Virus record (IMG/VR): IMGVR_UViG_3300016665_000180
Location: 1 to 29,572 of that record
Strand: one strand, 5' to 3'
Origin: a virus
Taxonomy: Duplodnaviria > Caudoviricetes
DNA length: 29,572 nucleotides
This document shows, one piece after another, positions 2,553-13,181 of this stretch; position 1 is the stretch's first letter, and the number at the start of each line of letters is the position of its first letter. A program made the translations under genes and the position numbers. The notes beneath the pieces were generated by a model. It did no database searches. It was not told the origin of the DNA and saw only the letters and a list, made by a program, of their open reading frames with translations.

Positions 2553-2580
2553 GGCGGCTCGATCAACCAAGGAGCAAACT

Positions 2581-2757
2581 GTGAAGATCGAGTTCAGTGA
2601 AGACGACATCAAGGACATCATCATCGAGCGTGCTCGCGCCCTGTGCCCCGCCGTCGAGTGGGAGACGGTGGAGCTCGACATCGGCTACGGCACGATCCGC
2701 AAGGCGGTCGTGGGTGAGCGCCAGCCGCGCCCGGCGCTGGAGGTGGTCAATGGCTGA
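2581..2757 (+). CDS. Small hypothetical protein (58 aa), first gene of the replication operon
   Basis: GTG at 2581 after AAGGAG; MKIEFSEDDIKDIIIERARALCPAVEWETVELDIGYG...; overlaps the start of the next gene. Confidence 0.7.
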   Translation: MKIEFSEDDIKDIIIERARALCPAVEWETVELDIGYGTIRKAVVGERQPRPALEVVNG

Positions 2758-4515: not shown

Positions 4516-4532
4516 TCTAACCTTGAGAGGGG

Positions 4533-4555
4533 CGGGGGCTACGGCCCCCGTTTTT
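4533..4555 (+). terminator. Intrinsic terminator-like hairpin between the SSB and polymerase genes
   Basis: CGGGGGC-TACG-GCCCCCG followed by TTTTT. Confidence 0.75.
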
Positions 4556-6536
4556 GTCTGTGATCTGGATTGATTTCGAGACGCGCTCCGAGTGCGACCT
4601 ACCGGCGCGCGGCGCATACAACTACGCGCAAGACCCCAGCACGAAGGTGCTGTGCATGGCGTGGGCGCTGGACGACGGCGAGGTGGGAATTTGGGTGCCG
4701 GGCCAAGAATTTCCAAAAGTCGTGGCCGATGCCGTCGCAAACGGCGACACCATCATGGCCCACAACGCCGCGTTCGAGCGCCTGATCTGGTCCTACGTCC
4801 TCGGGCCGGATCACGGCGTGCCGGTGCCGCGCCTGGAGCAGTTCTACTGCACCGCCGCCCAGGCCCGCGCCAACTGCGCGCCGGGCTCGCTGGAGGACGT
4901 GGGCCGGTTCGCTGGCGCGGACATGAAGAAGGACCACAGAGGCGCGGCGCTGGTGCGCAAGTGCAGCTGCCCGCCGTTCACGCACACCGAGCAGGACTTG
5001 CGGGACTTGTTCGCCTACTGCGCCCAGGACGTGCGGGCCATGCGCGCCGTGAGCCAGGCCATGCGGCCGCTGTCGGCGCAGGAGCTGGCCGACTACCACG
5101 TCAACGAGCGCATCAACGACCGCGGCGTGCTGGTGGACGTGGCGATCGCCAAGGCCGCGCAGCCCTACGCGGCGCAGGAACTGGAGGCCATCCAGCAGGA
5201 GGTGGCCGAGATCACCGAGGGCGAGATCACGAGCGTGCGCTCGCCCAAGATGCGAGCGTGGGTCTGGGACCGCGTAGGCCCGCAGGCGCGCGGCCTGATG
5301 ACGACCTACAAAGACGGAGAGCAAAAGCAGTCCATCGACAAGTCCGTCCGTGCCGCGCTGCTTATCTTAGCAGAGGAGAACGCTGATGAAGTGCCCGCTC
5401 ACGTTGCGGATGTCATCCAGTGCGCGGACGACCTGTGGGCCTCGTCGGTCGCCAAGTTCAAGCGTATGGCCGACCTTGCGGATGTCGAAGATCATCGTGT
5501 CCGCGGGGCGTTCGTGTTCGCTGGTGGCGCGGCCACGGGCCGAGCGTCGAGCTATGGTTTACAGGTCCACAACTTCGCCCGCAAGACCGCCAAAGACCCG
5601 GCCGCTGTCCGTCATGCGATGGTCCGCGGTCATCAGATCGTCCCGGCCTTCGGCAAGCGCGTCACCGACGTGCTGAAGGGAATGCTGCGCCCGGCCCTGA
5701 TTCCGGCGCCTGGCAAGCAGTTCGTCGTGGCCGACTGGAGCGCCATCGAGGGCCGCGTCAACCCGTGGCTGTCAGGCACGGGGCAGGGCAAGCTCGACGC
5801 CTTTGCGCGCGGTCTGGACGCCTACATCGTCAACGCTGCAGCGACCTTCGGCCGGCGCTACGAGGACATCCTGGCCGGTTACGAGGCCGAGGACGCGACC
5901 GCGACCGGCCAGCGTCAGATCGGCAAGGTGCAGGAGTTGGCGTGCGGCTTCGGCGGCAGCGTGGGCGCCTTCGCTGCGATGGGGCGCATCTACGGCGTCA
6001 ACCTGCCCGAGGCCGAGGCGAAACGCATGGTCAACGCCTGGCGCCGGGCGAACCCGTGGGCCGTGCGCTTCTGGTCTGACCTTGAGCGCGCCTACATGGC
6101 CGCCATGCGCCGCAAGGGGCAGGAGTTCAGCGCAGGCCGGATAACCTACTTCTTCGATGGGTTGCACCTCTGGTATGCGCTGCCGAGTGGGCGTATCCTC
6201 TGCTACCCCTACGCCCGCCTCGACGCTGATGGCATCAGCTACGCCAAAGCCTCATGGAAGCCCGCTGCTGATGCGAAAGAGTGGCCCCGCGCCCGCCTGT
6301 GGCCTGGCCTGGCGTGCGAGAACGTGGTGCAGGCCACCGCGCACTGTCTGCTGCGCGAGTCGCTGCGGCAACTCCCCGAGGCCGTCCTGCACGTCCACGA
6401 CGAAGTGGTCTGCGAGACGGACGACGCGGATCGAACGACTGAACTGATGAAGCGGGTCATGAAGAGCCCGCCGGCATGGGCGGCTGGGATGCCCTTGGAC
6501 ATTGGCATCAAGACGATGGAGAGATACGGCAAATGA
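4554..6536 (+). CDS. polA: Phage DNA polymerase family A with 3'-5' exonuclease domain
   Basis: Exo I IDFET, Exo II AHNAAFE, Exo III YCAQD; motif A VADWSAIEGR, motif B RQIGKVQELACGFGG, motif C HVHDE. Start is TTG 4554 or GTG 4560. Confidence 0.95.
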   Translation: MSVIWIDFETRSECDLPARGAYNYAQDPSTKVLCMAWALDDGEVGIWVPGQEFPKVVADAVANGDTIMAHNAAFERLIWSYVLGPDHGVPVPRLEQFYCTAAQARANCAPGSLEDVGRFAGADMKKDHRGAALVRKCSCPPFTHTEQDLRDLFAYCAQDVRAMRAVSQAMRPLSAQELADYHVNERINDRGVLVDVAIAKAAQPYAAQELEAIQQEVAEITEGEITSVRSPKMRAWVWDRVGPQARGLMTTYKDGEQKQSIDKSVRAALLILAEENADEVPAHVADVIQCADDLWASSVAKFKRMADLADVEDHRVRGAFVFAGGAATGRASSYGLQVHNFARKTAKDPAAVRHAMVRGHQIVPAFGKRVTDVLKGMLRPALIPAPGKQFVVADWSAIEGRVNPWLSGTGQGKLDAFARGLDAYIVNAAATFGRRYEDILAGYEAEDATATGQRQIGKVQELACGFGGSVGAFAAMGRIYGVNLPEAEAKRMVNAWRRANPWAVRFWSDLERAYMAAMRRKGQEFSAGRITYFFDGLHLWYALPSGRILCYPYARLDADGISYAKASWKPAADAKEWPRARLWPGLACENVVQATAHCLLRESLRQLPEAVLHVHDEVVCETDDADRTTELMKRVMKSPPAWAAGMPLDIGIKTMERYGK

Positions 6537-8845
6537 GCGAGTTCGTAGAGTGGCTGGCGGGGCTGGCCCCGGAGGGCGAGACGGCCTTGATCGTGCGGCA
6601 AAAGCCGCGCCTGGTGGACGGCGAGATTCAACTGCACCCGGACGGGGCGATCAAGGCCACTTGGCCGGCGTACCTGCCGACGCACCGCGTCAAGGATGGC
6701 GAGGCGTGGTACGGCAACACGGCGAGCTTCATCATCGACCGCTTCGAGGCCGGGCGCCCGAGCGCCAGCGCCGCGAACTGCGAGTATGTGCTGGTGATGG
6801 TGCTGGACGACGTGGGCACGAAGTCCAAGGAGCCGCCCCTGCCGCCGACGTGGGTGATGGAGTCGTCGCCGGGCAACTACCAGTGGGGCTACGCTTTCGA
6901 CGAGCAACCGACGAAGGCCGAGTACGGCGCGGCGATCCGCGCGATAGCCGAGGCGGGCTACACCGACCCGGGCGCCTGCAACCCGGTGCGCAACTTCCGC
7001 TTGCCCGGATCGGTCAACCTCAAGCCCGGCCGTGATGGCTTCGCCTCGCGCCTGGTGTCGTGGGACCGTTCGCGCGAGTACACGCTGGCCGAAATCTGCG
7101 CCGCATTGGGCGTGACCCCCGGCCCGGCCGATAGCAGCGGCCCCCGCGCGGTGCGCCTGGCCGATGATGGTGGCGACGACGTGGCCGCGTGGCTGTCCGG
7201 GCAGGGGCTGGTGCTGTCGCGCCCCAACGCGCAGGGCTGGATGGGCGTGGTCTGCCCGAACCACGCCGCGCACACGGACGGCAACCCCGAGGGCCGCTAC
7301 CTGCCCGCCTCGCGGTCGTTCTGCTGCCTGCACTCGCACTGCATCGACCACGACAGCGCCTGGTTCCTCGATTGGGTGGCTGCGCAGGGCGGGCCGAAGC
7401 ACACGCCCGGGCTGCGCGACGAGCTGCTCCAGCAGGCGATGGCCGCGACGGTCGGCAAGCTCGCGCCGCCCCCCGAGATGGCCGCGCAGACGGCGGCCGT
7501 GGTCGCCGAAGTCGAGCGGGCCGAGGCGGCCAGGACCGAGAAGGCCGACTGGTGGGACCGCTTCGCCTACATCGTGTCGGACGATGGGTACTTTGACCTA
7601 CGCGAGCGCCGGCAGTTCACCCGGACAAACTTCAATGCCTTGTTCCGGCACATCGGCTGCCGGTCGATCCACGGGAAGAATCCGAAAATCGAGGCCAGCG
7701 TCTGCTACGACGAACACCGCCAGGCCAAGGGCGGGAAGGTGCTCGACGGGATCGCCTACGCTCCGGGCGAGTCGGTGCTGGTGGCGCGCGGGACGGGCGT
7801 ATACGGGAACAAGTGGCGCGACGGCCGGCCGAACGTGGCGCGGGCCGAGGGCCGCGACGTGGGCCCGTGGCTGCGTCACGCCGAGCGAATGATTCCCGAT
7901 CCGGCCGAGCGCGAGCACGTCCTCGACGTGATGGCGTTCAAGCTGCAAAACCCCGAGGTCAAGATCAATCACGGGGTTTTGCACGCTGGCAAGCCCGGTA
8001 GCGGCAAGGATACGCTCTGGGCACCCTTCCTGTGGGCCGTGGGAGGCCCGGGGCGCGCGAACGTGTCCATTGTCCGAAACGAGGAGATCAATGCCCAGTG
8101 GGGATACGCCTTCGAGTCCGAGGTGCTGGTGCTCAACGAACTGCGCCAGGCCGAGGCGGCCGACCGTAGGGCGCTCGAGAACCGGCTCAAGCCCCTGCTA
8201 GCGGCGCCGCCGGACCTGATTACCGTGCAACGCAAGGGCCTGCACCCTTACGATGCGGCGAACCGGCTGCTCGTGGTGGCCTTCTCGAACGAGCGCGCCG
8301 CGATCACGCTGCCCTCTGATGATCGTCGATGGCTGGTGCTGTGGTCCGAGGCCGACATCATGCAGCCGGCCGCGGCGCGCGCGCTGTGGGCCTGGTATGA
8401 GGCGGGCGGGTACGAGGCGGTGGCCGCCTGGTTGCACGCGCGTGACATCAGCGGGTTCAATCCCGGCGCCGCGCCGATACTGACAGAGGCGAAGGCCATC
8501 ATGCAGGCCGCTGGCCTGTCGGCCGCCGAGGCGTGGCTTGTGGAGCAAATGCAGGGCCGCTACGGGCCGTTCGGGCGTGGGGTAGTGGGTGCCCCTTGGC
8601 AATCGCTTTGCGAGCGCCTGAGCGTGTCAGCGCCGGCCGGGGTCAAGCTGGTCGTGCCGGCGCTGTTCCATGCCTTCCGTGAGGCCGGATGGCGCGACCT
8701 AGGCCGCATCTATAGTGCAGAGTACCAGACCAAAAAGCACGCCTTCGCAGCCCCTGACTGGCAGGGGTCGAAAAGCGAGGCGCGCCGGCTGATCGAGCTG
8801 CCCGAGCCGAGCGCGGCCGAGATCATCGCGCGAGTGAAGGGCTAA
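6533..8845 (+). CDS. Primase-helicase (RepB-like primase + Cys/His cluster + SF3/DUF5906-like NTPase)
   Basis: VMVLDDVG and MESSPGNYQWGY (RepB-primase-like), CPNHAAH...CCLHSHC, Walker A GKPGSGKDT, LVLNE, SDDRRW. ATG 6533 overlaps the polymerase stop. Confidence 0.88.
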   Translation: MSEFVEWLAGLAPEGETALIVRQKPRLVDGEIQLHPDGAIKATWPAYLPTHRVKDGEAWYGNTASFIIDRFEAGRPSASAANCEYVLVMVLDDVGTKSKEPPLPPTWVMESSPGNYQWGYAFDEQPTKAEYGAAIRAIAEAGYTDPGACNPVRNFRLPGSVNLKPGRDGFASRLVSWDRSREYTLAEICAALGVTPGPADSSGPRAVRLADDGGDDVAAWLSGQGLVLSRPNAQGWMGVVCPNHAAHTDGNPEGRYLPASRSFCCLHSHCIDHDSAWFLDWVAAQGGPKHTPGLRDELLQQAMAATVGKLAPPPEMAAQTAAVVAEVERAEAARTEKADWWDRFAYIVSDDGYFDLRERRQFTRTNFNALFRHIGCRSIHGKNPKIEASVCYDEHRQAKGGKVLDGIAYAPGESVLVARGTGVYGNKWRDGRPNVARAEGRDVGPWLRHAERMIPDPAEREHVLDVMAFKLQNPEVKINHGVLHAGKPGSGKDTLWAPFLWAVGGPGRANVSIVRNEEINAQWGYAFESEVLVLNELRQAEAADRRALENRLKPLLAAPPDLITVQRKGLHPYDAANRLLVVAFSNERAAITLPSDDRRWLVLWSEADIMQPAAARALWAWYEAGGYEAVAAWLHARDISGFNPGAAPILTEAKAIMQAAGLSAAEAWLVEQMQGRYGPFGRGVVGAPWQSLCERLSVSAPAGVKLVVPALFHAFREAGWRDLGRIYSAEYQTKKHAFAAPDWQGSKSEARRLIELPEPSAAEIIARVKG

Positions 8846-8846
8846 G

Positions 8847-8880
8847 AAAAAGGCCCGCCAGGCATGAGCCGGGCGGGCCT
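8847..8880 (-). terminator. Intrinsic terminator for leftward transcription (possibly bidirectional)
   Basis: Minus strand AGGCCCGCCCGGC-TCAT-GCCTGGCGGGCCT followed by a T-run, at the convergence point with the primase gene. Confidence 0.85.
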
Positions 8881-8918
8881 GAAGGCGCGGGAGCGCCGTT
8901 GGAGAGGAGACAAACTGC
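8847..8918 (-). ncRNA. Candidate anti-Shine-Dalgarno small RNA (~72 nt)
   Basis: -10 TACAAT (8930-8925), then GCAGUUUGUCUCCUCUCCAAC, hairpin GGCGC-UCCC-GCGCC and the terminator. No ORF. The 5' arm is complementary to several phage RBS regions. The transcription start is inferred. Confidence 0.6.
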
Positions 8919-8951
8919 GCGGCTATTGTAGCCGGTTATAGCCCGGGAGGG

Positions 8952-9014
8952 CTATAGATCAAGCGCCACGATGAGAAGAAGGGTCGCCAGGGCGGCCAGG
9001 GCTGCGAAAATCAT
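8952..9014 (-). CDS. Very small hydrophobic peptide (20 aa)
   Basis: MIFAALAALATLLLIVALDL; TGATG coupling with the upstream ORF; GGGG RBS-like sequence. Confidence 0.5.
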   Translation of the reverse strand: MIFAALAALATLLLIVALDL

Positions 9015-9118
9015 CACCAGTCCCCCAGCAGACCCAGCAGGGTGACGGGCAGGGCGATCCACCAGGGCGTGAGGGTCCAGAGCACGGCCAGCGCGGCTAC
9101 GATGAGGATCAGGTTCAT
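9014..9118 (-). CDS. Small membrane peptide (34 aa)
   Basis: MNLILIVAALAVLWTLTPWWIALPVTLLGLLGDW; ATGA coupling with 9115..9318; GGAGG RBS. Confidence 0.6.
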   Translation of the reverse strand: MNLILIVAALAVLWTLTPWWIALPVTLLGLLGDW

Positions 9119-9318
9119 CGCCCGAACCTCCCGGCCGCCCAGTCACGCGCGGCCAGCTCGGACTCGCTCGCCAGCGGGGGCGCCTCGTCGATGGGGTAGT
9201 CGTCGTCATACTCGGCCGGTAGGGGTTCGTGCTCCCAGGGGTCTTGAGGGTCTATCGGCGCGCGACCCGTAGCGGCTGCGATGGCGGCCAGCGCGCCGTC
9301 GATGGTCAAGGGGGTCAT
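9115..9318 (-). CDS. Small acidic hypothetical protein (67 aa)
   Basis: ORF track; ATGA-coupled on both sides; acidic core EHEPLPAEYDDDYPIDE. Confidence 0.65.
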   Translation of the reverse strand: MTPLTIDGALAAIAAATGRAPIDPQDPWEHEPLPAEYDDDYPIDEAPPLASESELAARDWAAGRFGR

Positions 9319-9737
9319 TCTGCGCCCCCCTCGATAGTCTCGACACTGTCCACGCCCGCATAGACGGCCGCAGGCGCGTCGGGCAGGGGCGCGTAGAGGG
9401 CCAGAGGGTCTACATCGTCCGGGTATGCGGGCAGTTTGTTGCGCTGCGAGTTCAGCGCGAAGTAGCGCCGCACGTAGTCGGCCGTGGAGTCGATCCCGGG
9501 CGCGTACTTCGGGAATAGTCGGTTCTCCGACCGCGCCAAGCGCGTGCGCAGGGGCTTCATCGGCATCAGCAGCTTTGCGGCCGCGTCCGAGCCGGGCACG
9601 AGCTTGTAGGTGGCGCGGGTCCCGTCAGGGTAGGTGCGGCGGGTGATGGTTTGCATGGCATCAGTCTCCGAAAACTGGCGCGAGTGCGTGCGCGTGAGCA
9701 CGCCAGACTCGGCTCGGGCATATGTCACGTAGCGCAT
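9315..9737 (-). CDS. Hypothetical early protein (alternative in-frame start at 9656)
   Basis: ATG 9737 follows GAGAGAGAGG and ATG 9656 follows GGAGA; the stop overlaps the next start. Confidence 0.65.
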   Translation of the reverse strand: MRYVTYARAESGVLTRTHSRQFSETDAMQTITRRTYPDGTRATYKLVPGSDAAAKLLMPMKPLRTRLARSENRLFPKYAPGIDSTADYVRRYFALNSQRNKLPAYPDDVDPLALYAPLPDAPAAVYAGVDSVETIEGGAE

Positions 9738-9923: not shown

Positions 9924-10380
9924 TCAGTACACGCAAATACCACGGGTGTAGCAGGATGCCGGGTCGGCGCCGGGCGGCACGTCACCGGGGCGCAGGATGT
10001 AGAGCGCTGCGCCGCGCGGGTCGGTTTGGATGTAGGTTTCAACCCTATTCGGCGCAGCGCGATCGGGCAGCATGACGACCGACATGGGGGGGGGGCTGGC
10101 GGTCGTTGCGCGCCGCTACGATGCGCCCCAGGCGCCGCAAGGCTCCGGTCTCACGGTCGGCCACGGGCCAGCGGCGCCCGCTGGCTTCACTGCGCCAGTA
10201 TGCGCGGCCTGTGGCGTCGTCGCGCTCGATGCAGCCGTGCTCGGTGCCGCACTCTAGTTCGTGCCAGCGGCGCAGGGTGCGCGAGACGCGGCGCAGGGCG
10301 GCGGCTTCGTCGATTGTGAAGCCGAGGGTCACAAGAGCGTTTTCCTGATGGGTCAAACGCTGACGTTCGGTTTTGTTCAT
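9924..10380 (-). pseudogene. Hypothetical early gene frameshifted at a G10/C10 homopolymer (151 aa if C9)
   Basis: Frame 1 reads MNKTERQRL...ARNDRQPPP and then stops at 10045. Removing one C at 10086-10095 continues MSVVMLPDRAAPNRVETYIQTDPRGAALYILRPGDVPPGADPASCYTRGICVY to TGA 9924. Confidence 0.7.
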
Positions 10381-10461
10381 GGTGCAGTCTCTCCGGGTTA
10401 TACGGGCCACGCTGGCGCCGCGTCACTGCGCCCGGAATGATTCAGGCGCAGGGGCTCGGGG

Positions 10462-10668
10462 TCACGGTTGCGGGCGGGTAGCGTACTGGACGGACCAGCT
10501 AATGAGCTCGTCAACGTGCGGCCCGGCGAGGATGCGCCCTTCCGCGTCGCGCATGACGCGCAAAAACCCGCCGGCCGGATAGGGCTCGTCGATCCAGGAT
10601 GCGACACCTTCGACGCGGGCGTGGTAAACGCAGCCCGCGCGGTTTTGGTACGTATAGTGGCAATTCAT
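10462..10668 (-). CDS. Hypothetical early protein (68 aa)
   Basis: ATG 10668 after CCGGAGAGACTGCGCT; MNCHYTYQNRAGCVYHARVEG... Confidence 0.65.
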   Translation of the reverse strand: MNCHYTYQNRAGCVYHARVEGVASWIDEPYPAGGFLRVMRDAEGRILAGPHVDELISWSVQYATRPQP

Positions 10669-10738
10669 AGCGCAGTCTCTCCGGGATTGGGAACGGGAAT
10701 TTTGGACAGTGTGCCGATGGTGCGCATCGGGGCGAACC

Positions 10739-11187: not shown

Positions 11188-11256
11188 TTTCATATCTCCA
11201 ATGGTGCGGGGATGCACCCTATAGCCCGCGCGGCCGGCGGGCTAGCGGGTGAACCC

Positions 11257-11985
11257 TTACGCGGCCGCGGGTTGAAAATGTCGCGCCATGGCGCCATGCA
11301 CGATGATGGCTACGGATGCTTGCCCGGCTCCACGTGGCGCGCCGTCACAGGCCTTGCAGCTGATACACTGGCGCCGATCGCCCCCTTCCGGGCTTGCCGG
11401 GCAGACAATCTCGCGCGCACCCAATGATTCATCGGCCGCGCGCACGCGGAACGTGCGCCAGCCCATGGCGCGCGCCGTGTCGCGATCGGACGCGCTATCG
11501 GCACTGGCCATCACCATCGTGCGCAAACCGCGCGCGAACCATTGGCGCCACTGGTGAGTATAGCCCGTATGACCAGCCGCACGTCGAATCAAGGCGCGCC
11601 AATGGCGCGAAGGGATAGCGGCCGGGTCCCCGTAAGACCCGATGCGCACGGCGCGGCCTGCCAGCATGCGCGCGCCGTCCGTGGGCGACATGAGCGGGTA
11701 AGCGCCCCGGGTCCAAGCGCTGAAAACGGATGTAACGGATTTGGACACCTCCACGTAACACGTCCGCGCGCGGCCGGCGAGCTTGTCGCCGCGGTGGACA
11801 CAATCTCCGCATATGCTCACATCGTCACCCGATGCGATCGCATGCATCGGCGCCATGTCGGCGCGCAAGATGTAGGTTTGCACCATGTCGCCCGTCTTCA
11901 TGTTCGAAGACTTGAGCACGGCGATCCCGACGATCGGCGCGCCATCGATGGCCGATGGGCCATCATAAAAAACGAATCCACGCAT
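11257..11985 (-). CDS. Cys-rich radical-SAM-like / Gp88-like phage protein (242 aa)
   Basis: SSNMKTG, CGDC-x13-CY, RIGSYGDP, GYTHQW, MASAD, CPA...CISCKAC...IIVHG; GGAGAGG RBS. The family assignment is from recalled motif pattern, not from a search. Confidence 0.65.
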   Translation of the reverse strand: MRGFVFYDGPSAIDGAPIVGIAVLKSSNMKTGDMVQTYILRADMAPMHAIASGDDVSICGDCVHRGDKLAGRARTCYVEVSKSVTSVFSAWTRGAYPLMSPTDGARMLAGRAVRIGSYGDPAAIPSRHWRALIRRAAGHTGYTHQWRQWFARGLRTMVMASADSASDRDTARAMGWRTFRVRAADESLGAREIVCPASPEGGDRRQCISCKACDGAPRGAGQASVAIIVHGAMARHFQPAAA

Positions 11986-12033
11986 GTCTGATCCTCTCCG
12001 GGTTGCAGCGCTCACAATCAAGCGCATGGGTTC

Positions 12034-12099: not shown

Positions 12100-12540
12100 T
12101 GCGCGATCGAGGGTAGGCGACGCGGGGGCTGTCTGTAGGTGGCGAGGATAGGTGCCAGTTTGCGCCCCCCCTCCCCCTCTGGATTAGGTGCTAAAGGGTA
12201 GTTCTGCTATCTCTCTCTAAGTCAGAGATAAATATAAGAATATAAGCATATACTGATATATGGCAATATAGGGTGGCGCGATAGCGGTAGGTAGGGCCTA
12301 CAGCTACCTATCTACCTAAGCCGGGCGCCACGTCGCCCCCGCGCAGAAAGCATAGGCGATCGAGGGTAGTTGTGTCGGCACGCACCTAGCACCCCGCCCT
12401 GGATCGCCTATCCGCTAGGGGCACCGACCCTGCTAGGCGTTGCCTATATGACCTATACCGCCTATCCCCCGGCGGCAGGGGGCTAGCGCCTGTTAGCTGA
12501 GTGCCTAGATGACCTAGACCGCCTAGCCCCTGGCTGCACG
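12100..12540. other. Non-coding block with an AT-rich core and TAGG/CCTA iteron-like repeats (candidate origin or packaging-control region)
   Basis: AT-rich stretch ~12205-12270; dense TAGG/CCTA; exact 14-bp direct repeat at 12103 and 12356; ~41-bp imperfect direct repeat at 12441 and 12502; lies between the divergent early and late operons. Confidence 0.55.
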
Positions 12541-12704: not shown

Positions 12705-13181
12705 ATGTTCAAGAGCCTGCCCTTGACAACGCGAGAAGTGCGCGCCACCGAAGCGGTGCTTAACCGCATCTACGACGCGGCGCGCAAAGGGCTCAAGGGC
12801 GATACGCTGGCGCTGGCCGCGGGGATGCTGCCGGTCGAGTACCGGCGCTTGCGCGAGTTGGACCCGATTGCGGAACTGGCCGAACAAAAAGGGCGCGCGG
12901 ACGGCGAGCTTGCCATGTCGAAGGTGCTGCACGACGCGGCCGACGCAGGCGACGCCAAGGCGGCGCTGGAAATCTTGAAGCACGCCCACGGCTGGGTCGC
13001 CAAGCAGCAGGTGCAGATCGATGTGGCGCAGCAGATCAGCATCACGGCGGCGCTAGACGCGGCGCAGCGGCGAGTTCAAATGGTCGAAGAGGTGACGGAT
13101 GCAAGAGCCGCGCTACTCAGCGGACCAGGAGCAGGGGCTGATGTCCCAGCTCTGGTCGCCGCTGATCGCCAACGACCCTGA
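12705..13181 (+). CDS. terS: Putative terminase small subunit
   Basis: Directly upstream of and overlapping terL; HTH-like N-terminus followed by helical segments (AALEILKHAHGW). Assigned by position. Confidence 0.7.
   Translation: MFKSLPLTTREVRATEAVLNRIYDAARKGLKGDTLALAAGMLPVEYRRLRELDPIAELAEQKGRADGELAMSKVLHDAADAGDAKAALEILKHAHGWVAKQQVQIDVAQQISITAALDAAQRRVQMVEEVTDARAALLSGPGAGADVPALVAADRQRP

Follow-up and report, generated by a model that had tools for sequence, protein, structure and literature searches.

A predicted small RNA gene at the 3' end of a phage early operon, with the primase translation start as its most likely conserved target

A short minus-strand unit lying between the primase stop codon (8845) and the stop codon of a converging 20-codon ORF is very probably a real RNA gene, and its most likely role is repression of translation of the phage's own pre-late genes, the conserved target being the primase start. 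Its sequence and predicted fold are conserved among relatives with covariation in the stems, relatives carry promoter-like hexamers in front of it, and its 5' arm shows a statistical fit to translation starts. We propose a trans-acting small RNA of about 70 nt, which would be either transcribed from a host-type promoter of its own or released by cleavage from the early mRNA's 3' end and which might use Hfq or RNase E. Its open CU-rich arm would base-pair in vivo over pre-late translation starts and block ribosome loading; across the family the target would be the primase start, and in this genome the lead genes of the early and replication operons are fitted by the arm as well. The repression would be timed as a brake on replication and early proteins, sparing the late genes.

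The window (the whole stretch of DNA analysed, 29,572 nt, 65.8% GC) is an entire contig, from which about 10 kb of the phage genome is missing. The phage is uncultured. Its exonuclease, polymerase and primase genes form an operon on the plus strand, a cluster of small early genes on the minus strand converges with it, and late genes are present too; gene starts were taken throughout from our own simple gene caller. The closest annotated phage, MW202483, comes from a freshwater spring and shares 51% primase identity. In most relatives, down to 50% primase identity, a gene for a hydrophobic peptide of 19-24 aa, often with terminal LDL, closes the early operon; the 20-codon ORF of the window had no match in a Pfam scan. 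Inverted repeats that share a TAGCC/GGCTA core occur twice over the candidate promoter (8920-8956, neither found in relatives) and once upstream of early gene 11187 (11210-11256); they may be operators or processing hairpins. A hairpin with a T-run lies between the 3856-4515 gene and the polymerase gene (4525-4556), and several relatives have a comparable hairpin before the polymerase, whose called start in the window (4560) has no Shine-Dalgarno (SD) sequence.

Table 1. Positions in the window of the predicted RNA unit, its neighbouring genes and its predicted targets
Feature	Position	Strand	Remarks
Predicted small RNA, 72 nt	8847-8918	-	Start inferred 7 nt past -10; fold prediction; layout conserved in relatives
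Candidate -10 hexamer TACAAT	8925-8930	-	No clear -35; in loop of 6-bp inverted repeat (8934-8920)
CU-rich single-stranded arm, 21 nt	8898-8918	-	Opening cost 0.4 kcal/mol
Seed UGUCUCCUC	8904-8912	-	Identical to first 9 nt of RF02278 consensus
Middle hairpin GGCGC-UCCC-GCGCC	8884-8897	-	4 of 5 pairs altered on both sides across 21 aligned units
Intrinsic terminator	8847-8879	-	Stem 8879-8852, U-tract 8851-8847
Inverted repeat, 8 bp, TATAGCCC/GGGCTATA	8937-8956		Within insert absent from relatives
20-codon hydrophobic ORF, last early gene	8952-9014	-	C-terminus LDL; conserved; in relatives its stop overlaps predicted promoter
Primase-helicase	6533-8845	+	RepB_primase, DUF5906 (Pfam); PHROG 1156
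Primase translation start, predicted family-conserved target	6508-6544	+	Overlaps polymerase stop
Start of first called early gene (11985), strongest predicted target here	11974-12010	-	Pairing -24.9; -18.0 with opening costs
Start of first replication-operon gene (2581), second predicted target here	2556-2592	+	Pairing -18.6; -15.5 with opening costs
Start of early gene 10380, predicted target	10369-10405	-	Pairing -16.5
Start of early gene 10668, weaker predicted target	10657-10693	-	Pairing -16.5; -8.9 with opening costs; near copy of 10380 leader

The strings on which the original prediction rested, from the TACAAT hexamer through the arm and the hairpin to the terminator, all lie where it had placed them, and the sRNA-like layout that it read from them (open arm, hairpin, terminator) is confirmed by fold prediction and kept in relatives. 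The 78-nt fold reaches -37 kcal/mol (z -4.7), equalled by 1 of 200 shuffles, and leaves the arm unpaired. The terminator is clear in the window; the promoter is strong in relatives and weak in the window, and a simple consensus scanner run over the window listed neither of the two. Relatives have TATAAT or TATAGT at the small gene's stop where the window has TATAGC, and the promoter in the window has probably moved, the T at the stop having been lost and an insert having brought TACAAT, a hexamer that also precedes two host genes of the Rfam family RF02278 (L226 and L237). Directly upstream of the seed, AG/UUU fits the RNase E motif RN/WUU given in PMC11722255. Judging from its sequence, the terminator would work for the minus strand; its plus side lacks a U-run, so that read-through of primase mRNA could occur. 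An A-run precedes the hairpin in 3 of 77 arm-bearing loci, as against 7 of 12 arm-less ones. A plus-strand ORF starting from CTG was considered as well, and its conservation across groups was not seen.

Relatives were gathered by primase searches, and the first set comprised 141 loci with both primase ends. An arm, defined as at least 12 nt between the small gene's stop and the terminator, was present in 77 of these and missing from 64; where it occurs, the layout of the unit is conserved, with compensatory changes in the stems. Across 21 aligned units (primases 50-100% identical) 87.5% of cells pair and 8 of 13 pairs are altered on both sides; none of 500 shuffles matched this, a count that is not a probability given related sequences and a structure taken from the window's fold, and slid alignments gave 38-51%. 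High-GC lineages share the layout of seed, hairpin, short linker and terminator with different middle stems, and the seeds of three groups of relatives (A, B and C) differ from that of the window. An exact scan of viral contigs for the 17-nt seed gave four matches, all in unrelated AT-rich context and none with an Rfam match, and blastn of the unit against 50,697 phage records gave short chance matches only.

The promoter-like hexamer goes with the arm. Among 31 distinct contexts that have an anti-SD arm, 24 show TAnnnT spanning the stop of the small gene, compared with 0 of 17 arm-less and 0 of 18 short-arm contexts. Arm-less relatives often have TATAAA there, which is explained by the A-run of a two-way terminator or by an overlapping primase stop, and this leaves just two informative elements, the final T and the -35; a TTG spaced by 16-18 nt was found in 8/31 and 17/43 contexts against controls of 0.07 and 0.01, and also in 4 of 17 arm-less ones. 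A second, distant clade was fetched by primase alone and gave 60 loci with enough flank, of which 58 match a pattern requiring TATA[AG]T, with the seed downstream in all 58. TATAAT itself is present in 43 of 43 distinct contexts there, some of which swap Leu for Ile yet keep the hexamer (CTA and TTA make up 3 of the 61 Leu codons in the window's primase), and the seed core is constant while the primase ribosome-binding sites (RBSs) differ widely, a point against the primase target.

Five translation starts had been put forward as main targets of the arm, and the pairing strings quoted for them read in the window as written. When the 4-nt anti-SD core was held and the remainder of the arm shuffled, the strongest fits were those of 11985 (p 0.002) and 2581 (p 0.003), which also took first and second place among 46 called starts once opening energies were included (the order being 11985, 2581, 10380, 640, primase, 9737); these two are the lead genes behind promoter-like sites at 12061-12034 and 2525-2552. 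Genes 10380 and 10668 were upheld too (p 0.026 and 0.040), as two targets that are not independent because of a shared leader; this leader, CCCGGAGAG, is common to three early genes (10376-10399, 10664-10687 and 11994-12004). The fifth, 11187, proved weak (p 0.09), and its match of 9 in 10 needs two bases of the hairpin stem. For the pair of lesser matches at 9737 and 9656, the former stood (p 0.046) and the latter, an in-frame internal ATG of the 9737 ORF, did not (p 0.11). The string quoted for the polymerase (4525-4532) is not at that gene's called start, which pairs poorly (-8.0, p 0.81), and the RBS of the small ORF itself showed no fit (p 0.74). The primase had been listed as a minor match; its pairing held (p 0.024 at 6533), its minor rank did not, since throughout the family it is the primase start that goes with the arm. 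The duplex has 7+7 pairs on the two sides of a 2x4 loop and 2 further pairs at the end, with an energy of -19.9 kcal/mol (rank 3 of 39), and after opening costs the primase start in the window scores -10.6 (rank 5 of 46), duplex energies being computed without Hfq. G/C homopolymer runs at 10085-10096 and 12165-12178 yield falsely strong duplex scores, and the one near 10086, which may be an assembly or slippage site, breaks up the upstream part of the apparent 10380 ORF region. The pairing of 2581, 10380 and 10668 uses the arm's GCAG bases, which are present if the RNA starts at 8918; a processed end near 8914 would lack them and leave 11985 and the primase as targets.

Early and replication starts pair better with the arm than late starts do, as the prediction required (Mann-Whitney p 0.0013; -16.6 for 10 early, -17.9 for 6 replication and -13.7 for 18 late starts), whereas a generic anti-SD sequence, that of a 16S tail, does not separate the classes (-9.8 vs -9.5). 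One late start, that of the terminase at 13099, also passes the core-fixed shuffle (p 0.018), because the shuffle destroys the arm's second anti-SD stretch. The idea of one RNA acting on early and replication genes together holds as a bias in this genome and is not supported as a rule of the family: of 21 first-set representatives, the window alone had a significant best early target, and in the second clade 2 of 31 loci did. When early and replication RBSs were pooled, the sets fitted their cognate arms over foreign ones (p about 0.002, as against 0.36-0.50 for late sets), and leaving out the window and group B weakens the early-set signal to p 0.12-0.13. The first replication gene was rejected as a conserved target after relatives were read by eye: no match of its RBS to the cognate arm was seen there beyond the SD.

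What follows the arm across the family is the primase start. With curated starts in 17 groups, the residual of cognate arm against primase start was -1.98 kcal/mol (p 0.0006-0.0007), and among 17 automatically clustered gene families the primase start came out best (p 0.002, the next being 0.036); loci are redundant and related, which makes these p values optimistic. The covariation of seed and target that the original prediction had proposed as a check is seen at p 0.0006-0.002, and out of sample at p 0.016. The idea of a primase target came from the window and groups A and C, and without these discovery groups the first-set test gives p 0.20. Group C arms pair over 10-13 nt with the polymerase-primase junction, and in four variants they fit the last polymerase codons, which lie at the primase start; group B arms pair over 8-9 nt straight across the start codon; and the primase start ranks first in L196 (of 11 starts) and L198 (of 18). 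The fit is missing in D, L066 and L072, where the primase is preceded by a called or likely inserted gene, and also in L064, L068, L079/80, L133/141 and L140. Genes inserted at the polymerase junction were tried as targets in L001, L066 and L072 and paired weakly (-7.3, -13.4 and -7.5).

The second clade is a cleaner test of the primase target than the first set. Out of sample, the primase start ranked first in 20 of 54 loci and among the top three in 36, and under the core-preserving shuffle 20 of its 34 distinct pairs reached p<=0.05, as against 33 of 240 other starts. Arm type tracks primase start type over 35 pairs (p 0.016), as does the part of the arm that extends 5' of the shared seed, and a gene inserted before the primase often takes over both the junction and the best pairing. 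Group C arms and primase junctions are found in two separate clades of the primase tree (L042-L062 and L147-L158), each beside lineages with a terminator upstream of the primase, a pattern suggesting that either the primase body or its two flanks together were exchanged. Compared by eye, the A2 arm of L002, L019 and L041 is a 14/15 complement of the primase RBS of L007, which itself carries an A1 arm; arms and junctions seem to have been shuffled within the population.

The search of Rfam that had been recommended returned RF02278 at the unit, a resemblance not mentioned in the original prediction, at 24.2 bits against a gathering cut-off of 50. Relatives behave alike (28.1 bits in L196, 25.5 in L140), and in five relatives scanned whole either RF02278 or RF02837 matches the unit, always under the cut-off. 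RF02278 is the betaproteobacterial toxic sRNA family (ncS03/05/27/62, or BdhR1, of Burkholderia cenocepacia, with S17 of Bordetella pertussis closely related) and occurs in 37 of the 41 genomes that were sampled from one betaproteobacterial family. The unit shares with it the 5' seed, two hairpins with CU-rich unpaired parts, a short linker, a GC-rich terminator and a length of about 60-70 nt, and its double hairpin ending in an intrinsic terminator lies within the range of about 57-92 nt tabulated in PMC5688073. Host copies are built as -10, 5' hairpin, seed, hairpin, short UUC-type linker and terminator, the optional 5' hairpin and the -10 being further points of likeness. The family's 5' seed, UGUCUCCUCC, is matched in 9 of 10 nt in the window, unpaired, and in 10 of 10 in most second-clade units. 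RF02278 RNAs cover the ribosome-binding sites of many genes (PMC5688073, PMC11722255), in 55-80% of the interactions predicted in PMC5688073, and S17 is described in PMC11722255 as cut by RNase E to 67 nt, bound by Hfq and repressing transporters and a regulator. The unit differs in being phage-borne, in its low scores, in diverging seeds in groups A, B and C, in having phage starts as predicted targets, and in its first stem, which the family builds from the 3' end of the seed (UCCAC/GUGGA, loop of the CUCCUC type) and which in the window is GGCGC/GCGCC with the loop UCCC. It is thus a look-alike of RF02278 and not a member. RF02837 (anti-hemB, ncS04, of Burkholderia) likewise combines a CU-rich seed with hairpins and is the best Rfam match at the unit in three relatives, at 22-25 bits where the cut-off is 49.5; the window scores 14.5 bits. 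A plus-strand match to Bp2_287 (25 bits vs 70) was set aside, as it rests mostly on the terminator hairpin. In the literature searched, mostly open-access main texts, no report was found of a phage RF02278-like RNA or of an sRNA acting on a phage primase start.

Such likeness raises the alternative that the unit is a captured or converged copy of RF02278/S17/BdhR1 that mainly represses host uptake and metabolic genes with GGAGAC-type RBSs, its matches to phage starts being a by-product of a shared RBS style; we consider this unlikely, with a real if modest chance of being right. Beyond the shared seed and gene layout, a model built from phage units alone recovers 18 of 18 host RF02278 loci; the same model, however, scores unrelated reverse complements of a terminator plus RBS at up to 36 bits, so that homology is not proven. 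In 400 kb of one stand-in genome (G011, not an assigned host), GGAGAC stands at 15 of 185 called starts, 7 of the 15 belonging to solute-binding proteins, the class that S17 represses according to PMC11722255, and 4% of the 185 starts pair as well as the primase start does. A pattern scan without chance control also found RF02278-like seed-hairpin-terminator units in about 120 viral contigs (L238-L357; e.g. L272:107-168, L258, L284, L295). Only 14 of 84 distinct units among these had a primase match in the fetched DNA, and of 20 tested a single one passes the Rfam cut-off (L272, 50.3 bits, not primase-linked). Against mimicry of a host RNA stand the seeds of groups A, B and C, which differ from that of RF02278 and fit their own primase starts, and the second-clade extension that tracks the primase start beyond the seed.

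A second arrangement occurs among the relatives, in which a minus-strand terminator lies just upstream of the primase RBS (57 of 141 loci; e.g. L093:5679-5736, L105:3089-3144, L125:3072-3138, L127:2908-2966). A -10-like hexamer (TAAGAT, TAATAT or TATACT) on the minus strand of the first primase codons accompanies it in 40 of these 57 loci vs 2 of the 84 others, with a poor -35, and the whole is a candidate cis-antisense RNA over the primase start. The arm alone is present in 73 loci, the upstream terminator alone in 53, both in 4 and neither in 11. Mutual exclusion of the two was considered and is not significant by independent tree pairs (2.2 vs 0.5), the FastTree primase tree holding too few independent switches for such a test.

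The same upstream cassette is the basis of another explanation, rather improbable in our estimate, by which there is no regulatory RNA: the 3' end of the early operon would hold a terminator and the relic RBS cassette of a lost plus-strand gene, the reverse complement of which is CU-rich by construction. Read on the plus strand, the unit indeed runs as stop, A-run, hairpin, linker, GGAGA and spacer, as does the cassette before the primase in the 57 relatives; the arm's reverse complement ends in CAACTG where starts have CAAATG, the arm is missing in many relatives, and the -10 of the window lacks a -35. A relic would be expected to decay, yet the seed and the middle hairpin persist with covariation down to 50% primase identity, TATAAT at the stop is held only where an anti-SD arm is present, and the four variants of group C follow the polymerase's last codons.

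The prediction had also offered an RNA-based immunity or lysogeny repressor, similar to c4 of P1/P7, and this claim found no support; we hold it to be very improbable. The arm does fit the lead genes of both pre-late operons here, and the accompanying remark that no protein repressor is visible was correct: no integrase, repressor or antirepressor was found among 22 ORFs (Pfam) and 34 ORFs (PHROGs) of the incomplete contig. An integrase is likewise absent from the 49 annotated features of the complete relative MW202483, and the 21 genome matches are contigs in metagenome bins of mixed taxa, none of them shown to be a prophage; with about 10 kb of the genome missing, a carrier state is still conceivable. 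Like c4, for which PMC12197685 describes action in trans on a phage ribosome-binding region, the unit is predicted to be such a phage RNA; unlike c4, its predicted targets are the primase and lead genes instead of an antirepressor, it pairs through a 5' arm and not through loops, no lysogeny genes are seen beside it, and the Rfam C4 model gave no match up to E 10 in 8600-9200. The unit may be said to work like RF02278 and c4 and to belong to neither. VpdS of vibriophage VP882 and PreS of lambda are trans-acting phage sRNAs that affect replication (PMC12197685); they differ in coming from temperate phages and in promoting replication, PreS via host dnaN. Finally, it is hardly probable that the working molecule is instead a plus-strand one, the tail made by read-through of the primase mRNA, which would serve as decoy or sponge for either the host RF02278 sRNA or the minus-strand RNA. 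Of 77 arm-bearing loci, 74 have no plus-strand U-run after the hairpin, the tail has GGAGAGGAGACA and lacks a start codon, and phage anti-sRNAs are known (PMC12197685); against this, it is the minus strand that bears the promoter-like hexamer and the U-tract, and both are conserved together with the seed.

If the unit does repress the primase start, it bears on how small phages without a repressor or a polymerase of their own time replication. To our knowledge, few trans-acting sRNAs from phages without lysogeny genes are known. This one is a 70-nt candidate with named targets and natural compensatory variants, and it could be tested with reporters without a cultured phage. We offer, as a speculation that is unlikely to hold, that an RF02278 sRNA was taken over and rewired, so that one RNA throttles the phage primase in trans, replacing the apparent cis-antisense RNA of sister lineages, and also represses host uptake genes. 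Were this true, phage replication would be tied to a host starvation sRNA, as the primase start fits the host seed too, and the RF02278-like units in many unrelated viral contigs would represent a wide class of phage sRNA mimics. The predicted RNA connects an abundant freshwater phage family with a conserved host regulator, and it points to two alternative RNA solutions, one in cis and one in trans, to the control of primase within a single family.
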